Assembly (NCBI GenBank): GCA_047947115.1
Contig: CP170459.1
Location: 2,848,001 to 2,912,000 of the forward strand
DNA from: Verrucomicrobiota bacterium
GTDB taxonomy: Bacteria > Verrucomicrobiota > Verrucomicrobiia > Limisphaerales > AAA164-E04
Direction of reading: 5' to 3'
Length of the DNA stretch: 64,000 bases
Shown: positions 1,790-11,384 of the stretch, piece by piece
How the letters are laid out: every line of letters starts with the position of its first letter
Numbering within the stretch: position 1 is the first letter of the stretch
Translations under genes and position numbers: made by a program
The notes under the pieces: generated by a model
The model's database searches: none
What the model saw: only the letters and a program-made list of their open reading frames with translations
What the model was told of the DNA's origin: nothing

Positions 1790-3003
1790 ATGACTCTGAT
1801 GACACAACTCCTCGATCTTTCAAAGTAGCCCTTGCCTGCGGAGGCACAGGAGGACACCTCTTCCCCGGAGTGGCCATCGCCGATGTGTTGAAGCAAAACG
1901 GGCATGAAGTTTTATTGATTTTATCTGACAAGAAAGTGGATCAAGCCGCCTCCTCATCGATCCATCATCCCCATATCACTTTGCCCAGCGTGGCTTGGCA
2001 GAAAGGAAAGCGTCTGCGTTTTCTGACCAGTTTCCCCAAAGTCCTTCACCGGTGTCGCACGGTTTTCAAGGATCATTGCCCGGATGCCGTACTTGCGATG
2101 GGTGGTTTTACCAGTCTTGCCCCGGTATTGACCGCTCGTCGTTGGAAAAAACCTGTGTTCCTGCATGAAAGTAACGCTTTTCCCGGTCGAGCCATTCGGT
2201 TGCTGGCCCGGTGGGCTGACACTGGGTTTGTGGGATTCGAAAAGACCATCAGCAGGATTCCGGGTGTCCCATGTCATGTTACAGGAACTCCAGTTCGTAA
2301 ATCCTTGCGTCAATTGGACAGGGAAGCTTGTGTTCGTGCTCTGGGGTTAAAAGTCGATCGTCCGGTGTTGTTGGTTACCGGAGGCAGTCAGGGAGCTGTT
2401 GCCATCAATCGCTTGATCTTATCCAATCTCGACAGGATTAAGTCAACGTTTCCCACTCTTCAGATCATGCACTTGTGTGGTTTGCATGAAGACCTGCCGG
2501 GTGTGTGCCGACAATATGCTAACCATGGAATCGACGCACAAGTCCACGCATTTTTCGATCGGATGGATCTCGCCCTTGGAGCTGCGACAGCCGCCATCGG
2601 AAGATCCGGCGCTTCGTTCATGGCTGAACTCGTTGCGGTCGGTCTGCCCTCTATGTTGATTCCATTTCCTCATGCGGCTGATAATCATCAGTTGGAAAAC
2701 GCGTTGAGCCTGAGTGAACTGGGCGCTGCCATTCATTTTGATGAGCAAACCGCTGACGCAGGCATTTTCATCAAGAAATTGGAAATTCTTCTGAAAGATG
2801 ATGCCCAACGATCCAGGATGCGGGCGGTCATGTCGGGGTTGGATCGTCCGGATTCGGCGCAGGTTATTGTTTCACACATGTCCACGCTTGTCGGCAGCCG
2901 CCGTTTCAATGAAAAAGGATCGGAAAAGTCGCGGCAATCAACCAACGCACAGGGCAGATCCGGTCAATCGCATTCAAGCCATCAGGTATCGACGGTGTCA
3001 TGA
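1786..3003 (+). CDS. murG: Undecaprenyl-PP-MurNAc-pentapeptide GlcNAc transferase MurG
   Basis: GGTGGHLFPG, MGGF, HESN, TGTPVR, GGSQGA, GRSGAS, NHQLENA. ATGA overlap with the ftsW stop. Confidence 0.95.
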   Translation: MNDSDDTTPRSFKVALACGGTGGHLFPGVAIADVLKQNGHEVLLILSDKKVDQAASSSIHHPHITLPSVAWQKGKRLRFLTSFPKVLHRCRTVFKDHCPDAVLAMGGFTSLAPVLTARRWKKPVFLHESNAFPGRAIRLLARWADTGFVGFEKTISRIPGVPCHVTGTPVRKSLRQLDREACVRALGLKVDRPVLLVTGGSQGAVAINRLILSNLDRIKSTFPTLQIMHLCGLHEDLPGVCRQYANHGIDAQVHAFFDRMDLALGAATAAIGRSGASFMAELVAVGLPSMLIPFPHAADNHQLENALSLSELGAAIHFDEQTADAGIFIKKLEILLKDDAQRSRMRAVMSGLDRPDSAQVIVSHMSTLVGSRRFNEKGSEKSRQSTNAQGRSGQSHSSHQVSTVS

Positions 3004-5363
3004 TCACAGAAAATCCATTTGCATTGAACGACTGGTTGAAGGAGCACCCGGGGGCGGGACTCTATTTTGTTGGAATTGGTGGTTGTGGTATGAGTGGTCT
3101 GGCTCATTTGGCGGTGGATGCCGGATTTCGTGTGGCCGGTTCCGACTTGAGTCACAAGGAATATCTGGAATCACTCAAAGGTCGGGGAGTGGCCATTGAA
3201 TTGGGACACTCTGTCGATCATCTGGAAGGATTCAAACCTGATTTGCTGGTTGTGTCGTCGGCCATTCCAGAAAGCAATCCCCAGTTCGAAGCGGCCAGAC
3301 AGTGGAATGTTCCCATGGTGCATCGGGCTGCATTGTTGGGTGCCTTGAGCCGTACCAAACGTTCGCTTTGTGTCGCGGGCATGCACGGGAAGACCACCAC
3401 ATCGGGCTTGCTTGCTTATGCGCTGCAGAATTTGAATGCTCCCATGTCGCACGCCATCGGAGGTCGGGTGCCTCAACTGGTGCGGCATGGAAATCATATC
3501 GCCCCGGTGCCCCTATCCGCACAGTCCGAGGGGATACCTCCTTACATGGTGGTGGAAACGGATGAAAGCGACGGGAGTCTCCTGGAGTTTGAGCCCGATC
3601 ATGCGATTTGCCTGAACATCGATCGTGAACACATGGACTATTACCGGTCCATCGATGACATTGTTCAGGTATTTGAACGGTTTCGGGATCGGGTTCGCGG
3701 CAAGACGCTGTATTGTGTGGACGACGCACGTCTCCGGGAGGTGTTTATGGGGCACGAGCAGGCGGTCTCCTTCGGCTTTTCACCTTTGGCTGTCTATCAG
3801 ATTGAAAACCATCAACCGGCCTCACACTTGAATCCCTACCACCGATTCAGTCTGCGCCATGGACGCCGTTCTCACGATGATTTTGAAATCAGCATCCACG
3901 GTCGGGACAATGTTTCCAATGCGGCTGCCGTGTTGGTGATGTTGCTCGAACTGGGGTATGCGGTGGGTGATATCCGATATGCCATTCGTGATTTTCGGGG
4001 AGTTGATCGTCGGCAGCAGGTGTTGTTTCAGGACACCGATCACACCGTGATTGATGATTACGGGCATCACCCTACGGAAATTGCCAGCACCTTGAGTTCC
4101 CTCCGATCCCGTGCTGAAGGTCGGTTGCTGGTTGCTTTTGAGCCGCATCGTTACTCGCGTACGGCGAGTTTGATGGATGAATTTGGGAAATGTTTCAAGC
4201 AGGCCGATCGGCTTTGGTTGTTGGATATTTATGCGGCTCACGAGAACCCATTGCCCGGAGTGTCCAGCGAATCTTTGGCTCATCAACTGGCAAAGCAAGG
4301 TGTGCCGGTCGTTCATCATTCGGATGCATCCACTCTGCCGGCAGCCATTCGATCTGAATTGAATCCCGGAGATTGGGTGGTGTTTCTGGGGGCTGGCACC
4401 ATCACCAGGTCGGCTCAGGCTTTCGCCGACATATTGAAAGGAGAACATCATATGGATCTGAATAACCTGTCTCAGTCTCTCAGCCGTTGCTTGAGCCAGG
4501 TGAGCACCATTAAAACCAACGAACTTCTCGGGCCGAAAACGACTCTTAAAGTCGGTGGACCCGCCGATATGTTTGTTGTTCCCGGGCATTGCGACGATTT
4601 GGCGGCGACCTTGAAGTGGGCCAAAGCACATCACGTGCCGCTGACTCTGTTGGGTAGGGGATCCAATTTATTGATCAAGGATAAAGGCATCCGAGGGTTG
4701 GTGGTTTCTTTGTCTCATGAGACGTTTTCCGAGATCAGTGTTGAGGGAGATCGACTCGTTTGCGGCGCGGGAACCCGTCTCAAGCAGTTGACCGAGGTTG
4801 CCCGCAAGAATGGGCTGGCCGGATTGGAGTTTTTGGAGGGGATTCCCGGTTGTGTGGGAGGGGCTTTACGGATGAACGCCGGCGCGATGGGGCGCGAGAC
4901 TTTTGGTGTGGTGGAGCAAATGACCACCATGGATCGCGACGGAAATCTCCATGTCTGGAAGGCATCTGAAGTTGCCACGCATTACCGACGGTGTCCATTG
5001 CTGACAAAACACATCGCTCTTTCCGCTGTTTTCAAAGGAACCCCATCGGAACCTGAAACGGTGAAGCGTACCATGGATGATTACTGCCAGCGTCGGAAAG
5101 GTTCCCAACCGATCGCCTCCAGCGCGGGATGCATGTTTAAGAATCCGGAGAACATTCCTGCGGGGAAATTGATTGATGAACTGGGATTGAAAGGAACGCG
5201 TATCGGAGATGCCATGATTTCCGAGGTGCACGGTAACTTTATTGTCAACTTGGGGGATGCCCGGTCCAGTGATGTGATTACTCTGATCGAGCTGGTCAAG
5301 GATCGGGCTAAATCAAATCGGGGCATCGATTTGGAAGTGGAAGTTCAGGTGGTGGGAGAATGA
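3000..5363 (+). CDS. murC/murB: MurC-MurB fusion (UDP-MurNAc-Ala ligase + UDP-N-acetylenolpyruvylglucosamine reductase)
   Basis: N-half: GIGGCGMSGLA, GMHGKTTT, ETDESDGS, DDYGHHPTEI. C-half: KVGGPA, LGRGSNLL, GIPGCVGGALRMNAGA, SAGCMFKNP, HGNFIVN. One continuous ORF. Confidence 0.95.
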   Translation: MITENPFALNDWLKEHPGAGLYFVGIGGCGMSGLAHLAVDAGFRVAGSDLSHKEYLESLKGRGVAIELGHSVDHLEGFKPDLLVVSSAIPESNPQFEAARQWNVPMVHRAALLGALSRTKRSLCVAGMHGKTTTSGLLAYALQNLNAPMSHAIGGRVPQLVRHGNHIAPVPLSAQSEGIPPYMVVETDESDGSLLEFEPDHAICLNIDREHMDYYRSIDDIVQVFERFRDRVRGKTLYCVDDARLREVFMGHEQAVSFGFSPLAVYQIENHQPASHLNPYHRFSLRHGRRSHDDFEISIHGRDNVSNAAAVLVMLLELGYAVGDIRYAIRDFRGVDRRQQVLFQDTDHTVIDDYGHHPTEIASTLSSLRSRAEGRLLVAFEPHRYSRTASLMDEFGKCFKQADRLWLLDIYAAHENPLPGVSSESLAHQLAKQGVPVVHHSDASTLPAAIRSELNPGDWVVFLGAGTITRSAQAFADILKGEHHMDLNNLSQSLSRCLSQVSTIKTNELLGPKTTLKVGGPADMFVVPGHCDDLAATLKWAKAHHVPLTLLGRGSNLLIKDKGIRGLVVSLSHETFSEISVEGDRLVCGAGTRLKQLTEVARKNGLAGLEFLEGIPGCVGGALRMNAGAMGRETFGVVEQMTTMDRDGNLHVWKASEVATHYRRCPLLTKHIALSAVFKGTPSEPETVKRTMDDYCQRRKGSQPIASSAGCMFKNPENIPAGKLIDELGLKGTRIGDAMISEVHGNFIVNLGDARSSDVITLIELVKDRAKSNRGIDLEVEVQVVGE

Positions 5364-6293: not shown

Positions 6294-7277
6294 TTGAATC
6301 GAACCATGTTTTTCTTTTCCCAAAAATCACCTTTCAGCGCCGAGTCCACTTCGGAGGACATCGGGCTGGGACGTCAGCGTCGCGAGAAAAGAAAAAGGCG
6401 GGTGCGGCGAGTGCTGCGTGTGGGAAGTTGGCTGAGCGCCGTCCTGTTTGCCGCCTGGACATTGCACAGCGGGATCCACATTTTTCTTCAGAAGTATGTT
6501 TATACGAATGATACCCTCTCCTTGAAACGATTCACAGTCCGCTCCCAAGGTGTCATTCCACAGCGATTACTGGTGCAATGGACGGGGTTGAAGCCTGGTG
6601 ACAACCTGCTGGGGTTTGAACTGGCCGAAATCAAGCGCAACCTGGAACTGTCTCCGTTCATCGCCGAAGCATCGGTGGAACGTGTCTTTCCCGAAACACT
6701 GAGCATTCATGTGCGTGAACGCAAACCCAAAGCCCGCATACAATTGTTGCAGTTGGACGGGACCCCGAATGGGTCCATCAGGCTGGTTCCATTGATGCTG
6801 GATGAAAAGGGGGTGGTCATGTCACGGCCCACTCAGGGTGAAATACCTATTTCCATGCGATTGAAATGGGATCAACTTCCGGAAATCACGGGTGTCAATG
6901 GCATTCCCATTCACATAGGGCGCGCGGTGGACGATCCTCGCTTGAAAGCCGCCATTCATTGGGTGATGACATTTCAGGAGTCGCTGGTGCACTCTATGGT
7001 GACCGTCACCGAAGTCAACGTATCCGAGCCTGATGTGATCCAAGTGAAAACAGAGGATGGCCAAAAGGTTTTATTTGGTTTTGACGATACCTTGGCTCAA
7101 CTGGCCAAGTGGATGCAGGTGATTGATTTCGGTCGTGAAATCGGTCGCCGACTGTCCTTTTTGAATTTAACCATTCCAAACAACATGCCGTTCGAATGGA
7201 TGCCTGAAGAAGCGCTTCAGGCGGACGAACGGAGAAACAGAACCCAATTGCCTACGTTGAATCATGTGGATGTTTAA
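6294..7277 (+). CDS. ftsQ: Cell division protein FtsQ/DivIB
   Basis: Basic N-tail, single TM, POTRA-like segment ending ASVERVFPETLSIHVRERKP. Lies between ddl and ftsA. Start uncertain. Confidence 0.85.
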   Translation: MNRTMFFFSQKSPFSAESTSEDIGLGRQRREKRKRRVRRVLRVGSWLSAVLFAAWTLHSGIHIFLQKYVYTNDTLSLKRFTVRSQGVIPQRLLVQWTGLKPGDNLLGFELAEIKRNLELSPFIAEASVERVFPETLSIHVRERKPKARIQLLQLDGTPNGSIRLVPLMLDEKGVVMSRPTQGEIPISMRLKWDQLPEITGVNGIPIHIGRAVDDPRLKAAIHWVMTFQESLVHSMVTVTEVNVSEPDVIQVKTEDGQKVLFGFDDTLAQLAKWMQVIDFGREIGRRLSFLNLTIPNNMPFEWMPEEALQADERRNRTQLPTLNHVDV

Positions 7278-8493
7278 GCAGGATTCCTTTGTGACCGCAC
7301 TTGAAATTGGCACTTCGAAAGTCGTTGCCATCATAGCCGAAGTCAATGAGTCGGAAGCCATCAATATTGTCGGTTTTGGAGAGGCCAAATCGCATGGTGT
7401 GCTCAAAGGCGAAATCATCGATTCCAAAGTGGCTTACGAGGATATTCGAAAGGCCATCCGGGAAGCCGAAGACAGAGCTGACCGAGAGGTGCATCAAGTG
7501 TATCTGGGAGTGACCGGACAACATATCACTTCCAACAACTACACGGGCTCCCACGCCATTGCCTCAAGCGACCGTTTTATTTCCGAAGAAGACGTGGATG
7601 ATGTCATGAGCAATGCCCGACGATTCAACCTGAATCATGGGCAGCACATGATTCATGTCATCCGCCAGCAGTTTAAGGTTGATGGTCGGACGGTACATCA
7701 ATCTCCCATCGGTATGGCCGGATCCGATCTGGCTGTCGTGCTGCATGCAGTTCAGGGGTACAAAGAGCCATTGCAGCGGCCGGTTCAGTTATTGCGTAAA
7801 ATGAAATTGGAAGCCGAGAATCTAGTTTTCAATGGATTGGCTTCCGCACTCTCGGTGTTAAGTCCTGCCCAGAAAGCGGAGGGAGCCTTGGTCATCGATC
7901 TTGGGGCAGGGACCACCGAGTATGCCGCTTGTTCCAAGGGAGTGGTCTGTCATTCAGGTGTGCTGGCCGTGGGGGGGGATCATGTGACGGAAGATTTGTC
8001 GATCGGTTTGGAATGTCCCTTTACTCGCGCCGAAGATTTGAAGATCAAATTTGGATCCGCTGTGGTGTCCGAGTCGGCTCGTGGCCAGGTGAGAGAATTG
8101 GTGAACGAGGTTGGATTGACGGACCGACGTGTCAATGTGGAAAGTTTGAGGCGGATCATGTCTGAACGGTTGAAGGAAATATTCGCAATCATCGCTGCCG
8201 AGCTGGATCGCTGTGACATGACGGACATGGTCCACAGCGTGGTATTGTGTGGCGGTGGTTCATCCACGCCCGAGATTTGCACACTGGCTTCCAAGGTGCT
8301 CGAGTTGCCCGTTCAAATAGGTGCGGGAGTCAATCTGCACGGACCGAGTTCCATCATCGAACGACCTGAATATGCAACCGCGCTTGGTTTACTGAAATTT
8401 GGATCCTTTGACCTGGCGCGCCAGCGCGAATCGGCCGCCTCGCGTATACCGCTCAAGGATCGCATCAAGAGCCTGCTTCGTATCGAATCTTAA
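7264..8493 (+). CDS. ftsA: Cell division protein FtsA
   Basis: Actin-like motifs LEIGTSKV, IDLGAGTT, VGGDHVT, LCGGGS, YATALGL. Amphipathic C-tail LKDRIKSLLR. Start may be ATG 7270. Confidence 0.93.
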   Translation: MWMFKQDSFVTALEIGTSKVVAIIAEVNESEAINIVGFGEAKSHGVLKGEIIDSKVAYEDIRKAIREAEDRADREVHQVYLGVTGQHITSNNYTGSHAIASSDRFISEEDVDDVMSNARRFNLNHGQHMIHVIRQQFKVDGRTVHQSPIGMAGSDLAVVLHAVQGYKEPLQRPVQLLRKMKLEAENLVFNGLASALSVLSPAQKAEGALVIDLGAGTTEYAACSKGVVCHSGVLAVGGDHVTEDLSIGLECPFTRAEDLKIKFGSAVVSESARGQVRELVNEVGLTDRRVNVESLRRIMSERLKEIFAIIAAELDRCDMTDMVHSVVLCGGGSSTPEICTLASKVLELPVQIGAGVNLHGPSSIIERPEYATALGLLKFGSFDLARQRESAASRIPLKDRIKSLLRIES

Positions 8494-8509: not shown

Positions 8510-9802
8510 ATGACTGTCAGCAAAAGTAAGGAAAGTGGCGCTGCACCGGTTTACAAAGACCGGCTGATCGGTGTCGGGCAGATGGGCGGTAAGGTGGCAT
8601 CCATGATCCTACAGCGTGGCGAACTGCCCGCCCGGGGCGTGGCACTCGACATCGATGCATCCCATCTGGAAGACCTCCAACAAGAAGGCCTCATGAAAAT
8701 TCTCTGCGACGGAGAAGGGAACATGCGTGAGGTTGGCGATCAGGAGGGGGATACATTTTCAGGAACATCCGAAAATCATTACTGTCCGGAAGCACTGGGA
8801 GGCCATTCCGACTGGGCCATGTTGGTGGCGGGGTTGGGGGATGATTGTTCAGATCCCATCCTTCGTCAGACCGTTTCGACCGTCAAAAAACAAGGAAGCC
8901 TCGCTCTTGTCATATGTTCGCTTCCTTTCGACATGGAAGGAGAAGAGAAAAAGGAGTTGGCTGAAAAAACGTTGGAAGACCTCCTTCAGATGGCGGATGC
9001 GGTGATTGCACTTCCCAACCAGAGTTATCTGAAAAATCGTAATCAACCTGTTAAAATGAAGGAGGCTTTTGAAATGAGCCGCCTCGCATTGAGCAAGGCC
9101 ACTGAGGGTGTGTGGGAAATGCTGCATGCCGATGGGTTGACAAAGATCAAGCTTTCTCACCTCCGGGAACTGTTCCGCGGTCAACATGTGGAAGGGCTGT
9201 TCGCATCCTCCGAAGCGGAAGGGGAGGACCGTGCCAAAGAGGCGGTGGAAGATCTGCTCCGACACCCACAAATGGAAGCTGGACAGGCATTGCGGCTGGC
9301 GGATGCATGTTTGCTGCAGGTTACCGGGGATGAAAGCCTGACCTTCAAGGAAGTGGACCGCATCAAACGCCACGTTCGCCGGTTTTTACCCGAGGACAAA
9401 TCTCTGGTGGTTGGGACGTCCGTGGGTGGCACCCGGGCGGGTGTTCTTTCCATTCGCTTAATCAGTGCTCATGTTTCCCATACCTTGCCCCCACTGAAGC
9501 AGTCGGACCAAAAGGCGGAACAAGTGAAAATCGCTCCGGATTATTTTCCCGTCCCCATTGAGAAAGTGTCACAGCCCGCCCCATTGGATCTTCAAGAACC
9601 GGCTCAACAAGAAGAAGTGGTCATTCAGAACAGTGGCAAAGAGCTGCCTATTGACACCCCTCATCCGATGGCGCCTCCACCGTCTGCCAAGCGCCGCAAG
9701 GGGGTTGGTAAAAAGTACGGGTCTTCTCAAAAAAGAGTGGGTAAATTGAGCACGTCGGGATGCCCTATCGCTCTGTTCCAGTCCAGTAAAACATCAGCAT
9801 AA
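8510..9802 (+). CDS. ftsZ: FtsZ-like protein with degenerate GTPase motifs, truncated by ISL3 (native sequence to 9718, then 27 IS-derived residues)
   Basis: Follows ftsA. FtsZ-fold landmarks IGVG, LDID, VAGLG, PFDMEG, DAVIALPN, EGEDRAKEAV, LQVTG, VVGTS. Signature GGGTG(S/T)G is replaced by GDDCSDP. Confidence 0.88.
   Translation: MTVSKSKESGAAPVYKDRLIGVGQMGGKVASMILQRGELPARGVALDIDASHLEDLQQEGLMKILCDGEGNMREVGDQEGDTFSGTSENHYCPEALGGHSDWAMLVAGLGDDCSDPILRQTVSTVKKQGSLALVICSLPFDMEGEEKKELAEKTLEDLLQMADAVIALPNQSYLKNRNQPVKMKEAFEMSRLALSKATEGVWEMLHADGLTKIKLSHLRELFRGQHVEGLFASSEAEGEDRAKEAVEDLLRHPQMEAGQALRLADACLLQVTGDESLTFKEVDRIKRHVRRFLPEDKSLVVGTSVGGTRAGVLSIRLISAHVSHTLPPLKQSDQKAEQVKIAPDYFPVPIEKVSQPAPLDLQEPAQQEEVVIQNSGKELPIDTPHPMAPPPSAKRRKGVGKKYGSSQKRVGKLSTSGCPIALFQSSKTSA
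9711..9718. repeat. Left target-site duplication AAAAGTAC
   Basis: Identical copy at 11251-11258. Confidence 0.93.
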
Positions 9803-11250
9803 CTCCCCCGCTGACGCGGAGTCGGCCTTCGGCACTTATATGATGTTTTCCTGGACTTCCACGACGCGAGAGGGCCTACGGGTGGTGTGGTTTTTCTCCA
9901 AGAAAAACCCAGAGGATTTTTATTCGAAAAGCATCGGCAATCTCCTCAACATGGCGTCGCCAAAACAAACCTCGTCAAAGAGTGCCGATGCTGTTGAAAA
10001 CCTTGCTCAATCGTTGCCATAAATTCAAATCCTTTGTCTATCGCCAAGCATGCTTCCAGGAAGTTGAAGGAGTCGAAGCTATTGTCGTAAGCGTTGAACC
10101 ACGGCAAAACAGCCGCCCAGTATGTTCAAAGTGCAATCGTAGTGCTTCCACCTATGACCATCGTCCTGGAAAACGAAAGTTTCGATTCATCCCCTTATGG
10201 GGGTGGCCGGTGTTTCTTGAATACCGGATGCGAAGAGTTAACTGCCCCAATGACGGTGTTGTCATCGAATCGGTTCCTTGGGCCAAAGGAAAAAGCCGGA
10301 TAACCTGTGTCATGGAACACTTCCTTGCACAGTGGGCTCGGAAACTTTCATGGAAAGAAGTTGCCCAGACCTTTGAAGTCAGTTGGCAATCGGTGTATCG
10401 GTCCGTTGCTTCCATTGTTGAATACGGCTTGAAGCACAGGAGTTTGGACGATATTAATGCCATCGGAGTTGATGAGGTGCATTTTGGAAAGGGGCAAAAG
10501 TATCTGACGGTGGTTTACCAGATAGATCAAGGCACGCGCCGATTGTTAAGCGTCACCAAGGAGAGAACCGAGCAATCCCTTCGGGATTTTTTTAAGATCC
10601 TCACTCAAAAGCAACTTGAGTCCATTCAATTTGTTTGTTCGGACATGTGGAAACCTTATCTCAATGTGATTAAGGAAAAACTCGAACACGCCCTCCACGT
10701 GTTGGATCGCTTCCATATCGTAGCCAATCTGAACAAAGCAATCAATGAAGTCAGGGCGGTCGAAGCGCGTAAGATGCGTCAGGACGGATACCAGGAAGTG
10801 CTTAAACACACCAAATACTGCTTTCTCAAACGTCGTGAGAACCTCACGCCCAATCAAAAGATTAAGCTGGAGGAAGTCCTCCAGTATGATCTGAAAAGTG
10901 TTCGGGCATTTTTGCTCAAAGAAGCATTTGAGTTCTTTTGGAATTACACTAGCCCATATTGGGCTGAGTGGTATTTGAACAAGTGGTGCACCAGAGCTAT
11001 GCGCTCACGTCTGGAACCCATCAAGAAATTTGCCAGCAGCCTACGAAAACATCAGCCGCTGATCCTGAATTGGTTCAGGGCCAAAAAGACTATTTCGTCG
11101 GGAGTTGTTGAGGGTTTGAACCGCAAAATAAATCTGACTACCAGAAAAGCCTACGGCTATCGTAGCTTTGAAGTGCTTAAAATAGCCCTTTTTCACACAA
11201 TGGGTGAACTACCCGAACCTAAATTTACCCACAGATTCTGAAGAAGAGGC
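9719..11250 (+). mobile_element. ISL3-family insertion sequence (1532 bp)
   Basis: 29-bp imperfect terminal IRs (9719-9747 and 11222-11250, 21/29 identical), 8-bp direct repeat AAAAGTAC on both sides, one transposase. Confidence 0.95.
9982..11241 (+). CDS. ISL3-family transposase
   Basis: Zn-ribbon CSKC...RRVNCPNDG; DDE core IGVDE, CSDMWKPY, LDRFHIV, SGVVEGLNRKI, AYGYRS. Confidence 0.95.
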   Translation: MPMLLKTLLNRCHKFKSFVYRQACFQEVEGVEAIVVSVEPRQNSRPVCSKCNRSASTYDHRPGKRKFRFIPLWGWPVFLEYRMRRVNCPNDGVVIESVPWAKGKSRITCVMEHFLAQWARKLSWKEVAQTFEVSWQSVYRSVASIVEYGLKHRSLDDINAIGVDEVHFGKGQKYLTVVYQIDQGTRRLLSVTKERTEQSLRDFFKILTQKQLESIQFVCSDMWKPYLNVIKEKLEHALHVLDRFHIVANLNKAINEVRAVEARKMRQDGYQEVLKHTKYCFLKRRENLTPNQKIKLEEVLQYDLKSVRAFLLKEAFEFFWNYTSPYWAEWYLNKWCTRAMRSRLEPIKKFASSLRKHQPLILNWFRAKKTISSGVVEGLNRKINLTTRKAYGYRSFEVLKIALFHTMGELPEPKFTHRF

Positions 11251-11258
11251 AAAAGTAC
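11251..11258. repeat. Right target-site duplication AAAAGTAC
   Basis: Identical copy at 9711-9718. Confidence 0.93.
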
Positions 11259-11384
11259 TTTCAAACGTTTCTTAACCTGAGCGGGCAAAAGAAGGGACGT
11301 TTTGCGAAATGTGAACCGACCTACTACAACTCCATCAATCTGGACGAACCTACGTTCCAGCGGAAAAAAGTATTGTTTAATTGA
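11259..11384 (+). pseudogene. ftsZ: Severed 3' end of ftsZ (41 codons + TGA)
   Basis: In frame with 8510-9718 once the IS and one TSD are removed: FQTFLNLSGQKKGRFAKCEPTYYNSINLDEPTFQRKKVLFN*. LDEPTFQR matches the FtsZ C-terminal LDIPxFLR core. Confidence 0.88.

Follow-up and report, generated by a model that had tools for sequence, protein, structure and literature searches.

The interrupted ftsZ locus

The present analysis concerns a 64,000-nt stretch of a Verrucomicrobiota genome (the window) in which the gene ftsZ, placed after ftsQ and ftsA in the dcw cluster of division and cell-wall genes, is interrupted by an insertion sequence (IS) of the ISL3 family. The source genome, G000, is a single contig of 6.08 Mb with 95.8% completeness; window coordinates are used unless genome coordinates (G000:C1) are given. 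The gene order upstream of the interrupted ftsZ is ftsW-murG-murCB-ddl-ftsQ-ftsA, and the features of the locus are as follows.

6294..7277, + strand: ftsQ (POTRA and FtsQ C domain), intact
7264..8493, + strand: ftsA, intact (TIGR01174, 303 bits, cut-off 176)
8510..9718, + strand: ftsZ codons 1-403, tubulin-fold core and linker, without the T3, T4 (GGGTG), R142 and T7 (N207/D209/D212) residues
9711..9718, no strand: left copy of the 8-bp target-site duplication, AAAAGTAC
9719..11250, + strand: 1,532-bp insertion sequence of the ISL3 family, which has 11 copies in G000 at 99.9-100% identity
9719..9802, + strand: 27 IS-encoded codons and a stop (9800-9802), the new end of the ftsZ frame
9762..9875, + strand: long imperfect hairpin at the left end of the IS, 5' of the transposase (-50.8 kcal/mol, z = -3.1 versus shuffles)
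9982..11241, + strand: ISL3 transposase, 419 aa, intact (NF033550, PF01610, PF14690, PF13542)
11238..11241, + strand: CTGA, with CTG in the tail frame overlapping the transposase stop; candidate weak restart for a 48-aa tail peptide
11251..11258, no strand: right copy of the target-site duplication, AAAAGTAC
11259..11384, + strand: the conserved 41-aa tail of ftsZ, now orphaned (codons 404-444 with the stop)

The initial annotation had placed in the ftsZ linker a 1,532-bp ISL3 element with terminal inverted repeats and a perfect 8-bp duplication, and the element was found as described, its inverted repeats being imperfect (29-nt arms at 9722-9750 and 11219-11247, 76% complementary). The transposase scored 304 bits against NF033550 (cut-off 180) and 247 bits against PF01610, and the zinc ribbon and helix-turn-helix (HTH) were present. 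AT-rich 8-bp target duplications are a trait of the ISL3 family. The genome-wide copy count proposed earlier yielded 11 copies at 99.9-100% identity, and a perfect 8-bp duplication flanks 11/11; the interruption is therefore ascribed to transposition and not to a misjoin. Taken together with the natural empty alleles described below, these copies and their duplications argue against chance, and their near-identity implies recent transposition. Transcripts reading through from the dcw operon would carry the left-end hairpin in folded form, and it may shield the transposase from read-through. An Rfam search returned nothing credible.

Read from the ATG at 8510, the intact allele encodes 444 aa with the 41-aa tail at its end, and the filled allele encodes 430 aa, of which the last 27 are IS-encoded; the frames thus bear out the earlier statement that 41 tail residues are exchanged for 27. 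The core motif of the tail is LDEPTF in G000 and not LDIPxFLR, as had been given. No ATG, GTG or TTG start was found between the in-frame TAA at 11220-11222 and the orphan tail, in agreement with the initial annotation, but ATT (11223) and CTG (11238), both in the frame of the tail, had been overlooked. No Shine-Dalgarno sequence was seen before this CTG. A programmed -1 frameshift leading from the transposase into the tail was rejected, with no X XXY YYZ site in the six available codons.

A second intact ftsZ had been raised as a finding that would undo the earlier interpretation. The PF00091 and tail searches of the G000 genome each returned a single match, and no second ftsZ or second tail was therefore found; ftsZ is the sole tubulin-family gene. 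The conserved C-terminal peptide, joined to the core in the empty allele, is separated from it by the IS in G000. Apart from the insertion, the division and elongation machinery of G000 is intact, and the mraW-ftsI-murE-murF-mraY-murD block, ftsW, rodA, pbp2, mreB and ftsK are uninterrupted, as in G007, G008, G010 and G020.

Beyond FtsI/FtsW and PBP2/RodA, G000 carries a third transpeptidase gene and a third SEDS gene (G000:C1:2694370 and 4644904), which also occur in the four genomes just named. The murC-murB fusion of G000 (window 3000-5363) is known from Verrucomicrobium spinosum. In G010 (L051:7976-8878) and G006 (L055:6321-7178), the interval from murG to ddl contains the murB part alone, and murC was not found in those 18-20-kb loci.

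Core, tail and selection across the clade

Three genera of one family were compared, namely, g1 (the marine genus of G000, containing SCGC AAA164-E04), its sister genus g2, and g3. Motif positions were mapped through G025 onto the K. pneumoniae FtsZ 9isk. In FtsZ, T4 and T1-T3 hold GTP, the T7 acids of the next subunit hydrolyse GTP, and hydrolysis drives treadmilling. The loss of GTPase motifs first reported for G000 was confirmed: T4 reads GLGDDCSD, K stands at R142, T7 reads KIKLSH, and T3 is replaced, in a segment of low confidence in the predicted model. T3, GGGTG, R142, D209 and D212 are missing in 7/7 g1 genomes examined (N207 also in G000 and G001), and all motifs are missing in 2/2 g2 genomes with the region; G012 (52% complete) and G003 (an assembly without the dcw region) gave no usable region for g2. 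The 11 g3 genomes keep T3 and most of T4, with N24 and D209 replaced, and T3, GGGTG and often NxDFAD are retained in most of the 12 further families sampled. The TIGR00065 score falls from 314 bits (G025) and 254 bits (G020) to 88.3 bits (G000) and no match (g2), the cut-off being 295.2.

Loss of ftsZ in g2 was considered, given 0/3 hits and no PF12327 match, and was rejected, as G008 and G010 hold an open frame of 422-432 aa with the tail after ftsA.

L051:12031-13329: ftsZ-slot protein of G010, 432 aa, annotated hypothetical, in a cluster of 223 sequences
L052:1639-2907: ftsZ-slot protein of G008, 422 aa, annotated hypothetical, in a cluster of 88 sequences

The cores of these proteins have no Pfam or NCBIfam FtsZ match; without the tail, they scored 17.8 and 6.2 bits on the g1 core profile, where the best of 120 shuffles reached 4.3. 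The identity of G000 to g2 is 22-28% in the core, 63-64% in FtsA and 71-73% in the tail, and that between G010 and G008 is 27%, 70% and 82%, respectively. Core and FtsA tree distances (FastTree; the partial G029 was left out of the FtsA tree) were 0.40 and 0.48 for G025-G039, 0.86 and 0.34 for G000-G007, and 3.12 and 0.50 for G010-G008.

Across the order, the tail profile matches 198/201 genomes and PF00091 193/201 (both tallies include the unpublished genome G213), and the weakest PF00091 scores among the 193 belong to three g1 genomes. In families f10 (G030, locus L134; G102, locus L133) and f53 (G074, locus L135), the tail is kept and the core is without the motifs and missed by PF00091. 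Because these are other families with tails of the general type, their core decays are probably independent. Motif loss with a kept tail is very probably a clade-wide pattern, whichever reading of the insertion holds.

The ratio of nonsynonymous to synonymous substitution rates (dN/dS) between G000 and G001 was 0.062 in the N domain, 0.034 in the C domain, 0.010 in the tail and 0.021 in ftsA, at a dS of 1.2-2.7, which is near saturation. Three closer g1 pairs gave 0.09-0.15 for the core versus 0.02-0.04 for ftsA, and the range over g1 pairs was 0.03-0.15 for the core and about 0.01-0.13 for the tail. No variant tail residue occurs in nine same-cluster proteins, and no stop or frameshift was found in the other family genomes or listed cluster members, contig-end fragments aside. 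This ftsZ exhibits neither the dN/dS near 1 nor the accumulating lesions of a pseudogene. Judged from these comparisons, purifying selection acts on the gene, which is not decaying, and conservation is highest in the tail. The branch leading to g1 and g2 saw change in both FtsA and the tail, which fits co-evolution and is no demonstration of it.

The predicted model of the intact allele (P0002) has a core predicted local distance difference test (pLDDT) score of mostly 80-92 and matched a solved FtsZ in Foldseek (E 3e-25; template modelling score 0.79 of the target), its alignment including canonical FtsZ. The G000 core is predicted to keep the two-domain tubulin/FtsZ fold. The g2 model, made from an alignment with g1 rows, reached a pLDDT of 48.5, and its best structural matches, FtsZ, lend weak support. 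The tail profile had no match among PDB sequences.

Explanations of the insertion

The explanation that we favour, with a probability of roughly 0.5, is that a young ISL3 element severs the tail of a single, GTPase-dead adaptor FtsZ, a costly but survivable loss in one lineage. The clade FtsZ is likely a docking adaptor rather than a division motor, to judge from its sequence. The g1 and g2 protein would not turn over GTP, and hence would form no treadmilling ring. Selection would keep a folded body with a long tail docking on FtsA, which may serve as an adaptor or as an FtsA regulator. The terminal peptide of FtsZ binds FtsA in other bacteria, and tail-FtsA docking is proposed here by analogy with them. 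Septum placement and driving would fall mainly to FtsA, FtsK, FtsQ/W/I and MreB; a part of FtsK in septum placement has been proposed for Chlamydia (PMC12283558). Cells carrying the insertion would be viable. With FtsZ in an accessory role, an insertion that would be fatal to V. spinosum could be maintained in this lineage, and its absence from wild populations would be explained by strong selection on the tail. The adaptor FtsZ is a possible half-way stage towards division without FtsZ. Tentatively, and with some doubt, Limisphaerales may be viewed as a living series of FtsZ loss: partial motif loss in g3, a GTPase-dead but selected core in g1, an unrecognisable core with an FtsA-docking tail in g2 (and independently in two families), and the tail gone in G000, which would be a natural FtsZ-null walled Verrucomicrobium dividing by FtsA, FtsK and MreB.

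Several observations weigh against the favoured explanation. The dcw genes of V. spinosum, including ftsZ and its C-terminal extension, are essential (PMC12283558). GTPase activity has probably been lost in the clade FtsZ, a conclusion read from motifs only. Among the public runs listed, 20/24 hold this ftsZ region, mostly from estuary and seawater. The empty site is crossed by a contig in 5/8 runs compared (X1, X6, X15, X3 and X19, from five studies, three DNA and two RNA), and no contig bridges the filled junction in any of the eight, in a comparison of contigs, from which rare variants drop out; X18 bridges neither allele, and X21 and X22 hold none of the stretch. The single metagenome contig matching the left flank is empty (1/1). 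Among 15 listed members of the 90% cluster (17 in all), 10 are 444 aa long and 3 are partial, all 13 with the tail at their end; the remaining two are a short N-terminal fragment and the G000 product, the only one of the 15 that lacks the tail without being a fragment. The comparison with sister genomes suggested in the initial annotation revealed the tail in frame in 19/19 other family genomes where it was seen. FtsA differs from three of four same-species runs at a third position only, with no amino-acid difference, and no compensating FtsA change was thus found against those three runs. The insertion is known from one assembly alone, and its fixation is unproven.

The insertion is private to this assembly among the data sets of the species and is very young, because the orphan tail differs from same-species contigs by two synonymous differences only; the recency claimed at the outset is upheld by this and by the 11 copies. 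The same IS is present in these populations at other sites. Of six flank motifs of IS loose ends from other runs, four are absent from G000 and two are present there at sites without this IS, and the insertion sites are therefore strain-private. A dominant empty allele, the other finding held to undo the earlier interpretation, describes the species in nature, as covered by the runs, the metagenome contig and the cluster. What stands of the natural knock-out first proposed is that ftsZ is single and its tail removed; the knock-out itself is possible and unproven.

Candidates for a tail made or split off elsewhere were also considered and rejected. The 41-aa cluster member P0027, regarded as a possible separately made tail, is an N-terminal fragment ending in LSLIHI, which we take to be an adapter artefact. 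Among 150 listed tail matches in the order (52 further matches lie outside this check), seven besides G000 had frames of less than 400 codons. These were at contig ends (G049 and G128), near contig starts (G148, G176 and the second G191 match), or frameshifted within a core to which the tail remains attached (G158 and G167). In addition, G216 is a contig end, and G041 has a frameshift beside N.

The strongest rival, which we consider unlikely, holds that the insertion is a minority or dead-end allele of a mixed population that was kept by the assembler, the tail being essential and the growing cells intact. This explanation draws on the finding that all informative data sets of the species show the empty allele, on the invariant tail, the essential ftsZ of V. 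spinosum (PMC12283558) and FtsA without a compensating change, and on high IS activity: 15 seed repeats in G000 led to about 74 near-identical element copies, five families having 9-11 copies. However, an unselected mosaic should strike other core genes. A spanning frame was present at 49 of the element copies; 29 gave usable halves once the mis-bounded element family C had been dropped, and 17 were scanned. Those scanned encode peptidases M56, a beta-helix protein, spondin, RtcB, an intron reverse transcriptase, a UDP-GlcNAc epimerase, a kinase, a response regulator, transposases and five unknowns; core genes account for 0/17. Of all the genes examined at IS copies, ftsZ alone is a core gene, and the genes of division and elongation and the mur genes that were checked are whole. 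This absence is modest evidence that selection filtered the insertions of the genome and that the assembly reflects a genome so filtered. The survey is small (17/49 frames) and the elements favour AT-rich, often intergenic sites, a further point against the favoured explanation. The clade FtsZ core is also already non-canonical, unlike that of V. spinosum.

The IS copies of G000 concentrate in its first 2.9 Mb. The ISL3 element found in ftsZ also interrupts a UDP-N-acetylglucosamine 2-epimerase gene (copy at G000:C1:1395608-1397139), and further copies interrupt a beta-helix gene of 700 codons (239598) and an IS630-like transposase (115562). The group II intron reverse transcriptase/maturase L119 (G000:C1:1378048-1379358) directly adjoins an IS copy.

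Alternatively, the insertion is fixed but rescued, in that ribosomes ending the transposase restart at the CTG and a free 48-aa tail peptide is the working unit. The CTGA overlap lies in the tail frame with the geometry of ATGA coupling, the IS is oriented as ftsZ, and in g2 the tail is retained on a core under almost no constraint. Nevertheless, CTG is a weak start codon, here without a Shine-Dalgarno sequence; outward promoters are not above chance (3 sites, 1.9 expected); and transposases are poorly expressed, with a strong hairpin at the left end of this IS. A protein of 380-450 aa precedes the tail in every relative and purifying selection acts on the g1 core; the tether thus seems to be of importance, and rescue is improbable.

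Slightly less probable again is the strong form of the earlier interpretation, in which ftsZ is a dispensable relic becoming a pseudogene and the insertion is neutral. All catalytic motifs are lost, the g1 PF00091 scores are the weakest among the matching genomes of the order, and the insertion exists; however, the dN/dS values of core and tail across g1 pairs contradict this form, and the other family genomes and listed cluster members, contig-end fragments aside, show no stop or frameshift. The motif loss had been read as a sign of dispensability, which is unsupported because the loss is old and shared by g1 and g2, selection on the gene is purifying, and its best-conserved part, the tail, is present in nearly all genomes of the order. 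Least credible is that the 27 IS-encoded residues form a substitute basic/amphipathic membrane anchor on a working truncated protein: their best 11-residue hydrophobic moment (0.52 versus 0.43 in the native tail) and the retained basic patch of the linker are set against a segment with two glycines and few large hydrophobics, a value below that of the FtsA C-terminal helix (0.65), and the poor prospect of a chance sequence replacing a conserved 41-residue module.

Significance and relation to known systems

How bacteria of the Planctomycetes-Verrucomicrobia-Chlamydiae (PVC) superphylum shifted from FtsZ-based to FtsZ-less division is an open question (PMC5147048), and Verrucomicrobiota count as its canonical branch, dependent on FtsZ (PMC12283558). 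The clade described here keeps the whole dcw cluster, with an FtsZ that has been emptied of GTPase residues, is annotated hypothetical at the extreme, and has selection concentrated on the tail. If true, the FtsZ-null reading of G000 would supply the intermediate missing from accounts of FtsZ loss in Chlamydiae and Planctomycetes. Fixed in growing cells, the insertion would offer a knock-out made by nature; as a minority allele it would be trivial, with the clade-wide pattern unaffected. No description of a degenerate or GTPase-less FtsZ for AAA164-E04, Pedosphaerales or Limisphaerales was found in mainly open-access literature, and the dcw distribution in the supplements of PMC12283558 may include family members.

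The element is an ordinary, known ISL3. With the family (PF01610, NF033550), it shares a single DDE transposase with zinc ribbon and HTH, a length of about 1.5 kb, imperfect terminal inverted repeats and 8-bp AT-rich duplications; its sole oddity is its target. The interrupted protein is FtsZ-like by position and predicted fold and fails the canonical motif and score tests. Canonical FtsZ (TIGR00065; PF00091 and PF12327; K. pneumoniae 8gzv/9isk, E. coli 6ll6) has in common with it a position behind ftsQ-ftsA at the end of an intact dcw cluster, a predicted two-domain tubulin fold, a disordered linker and, in the intact allele, a terminal LDxPTF/Y peptide. By contrast, the clade protein is without the T3, T4, R142 and T7 residues and scores 88 against a cut-off of 295, and the g2 core escapes Pfam and NCBIfam. 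Canonical FtsZ ends in a short core peptide, whereas the clade has a tail module of about 41 aa, severed by the IS in G000.

V. spinosum shares with G000 the phylum, the ftsQAZ cluster, the murC-murB fusion and a C-terminal extension; its FtsZ is described as canonical and as essential including the extension (PMC12283558), whereas the clade protein is without canonical motifs. FtsZ-less PVC bacteria (Chlamydiota and Planctomycetota) belong to the same superphylum and likewise keep ftsK, mreB and SEDS/PBP genes, on which their division is thought to rest (PMC5147048, PMC12283558). These bacteria lost ftsZ and mostly ftsA, whereas the clade of G000 keeps ftsA, ftsQ and a selected ftsZ frame.

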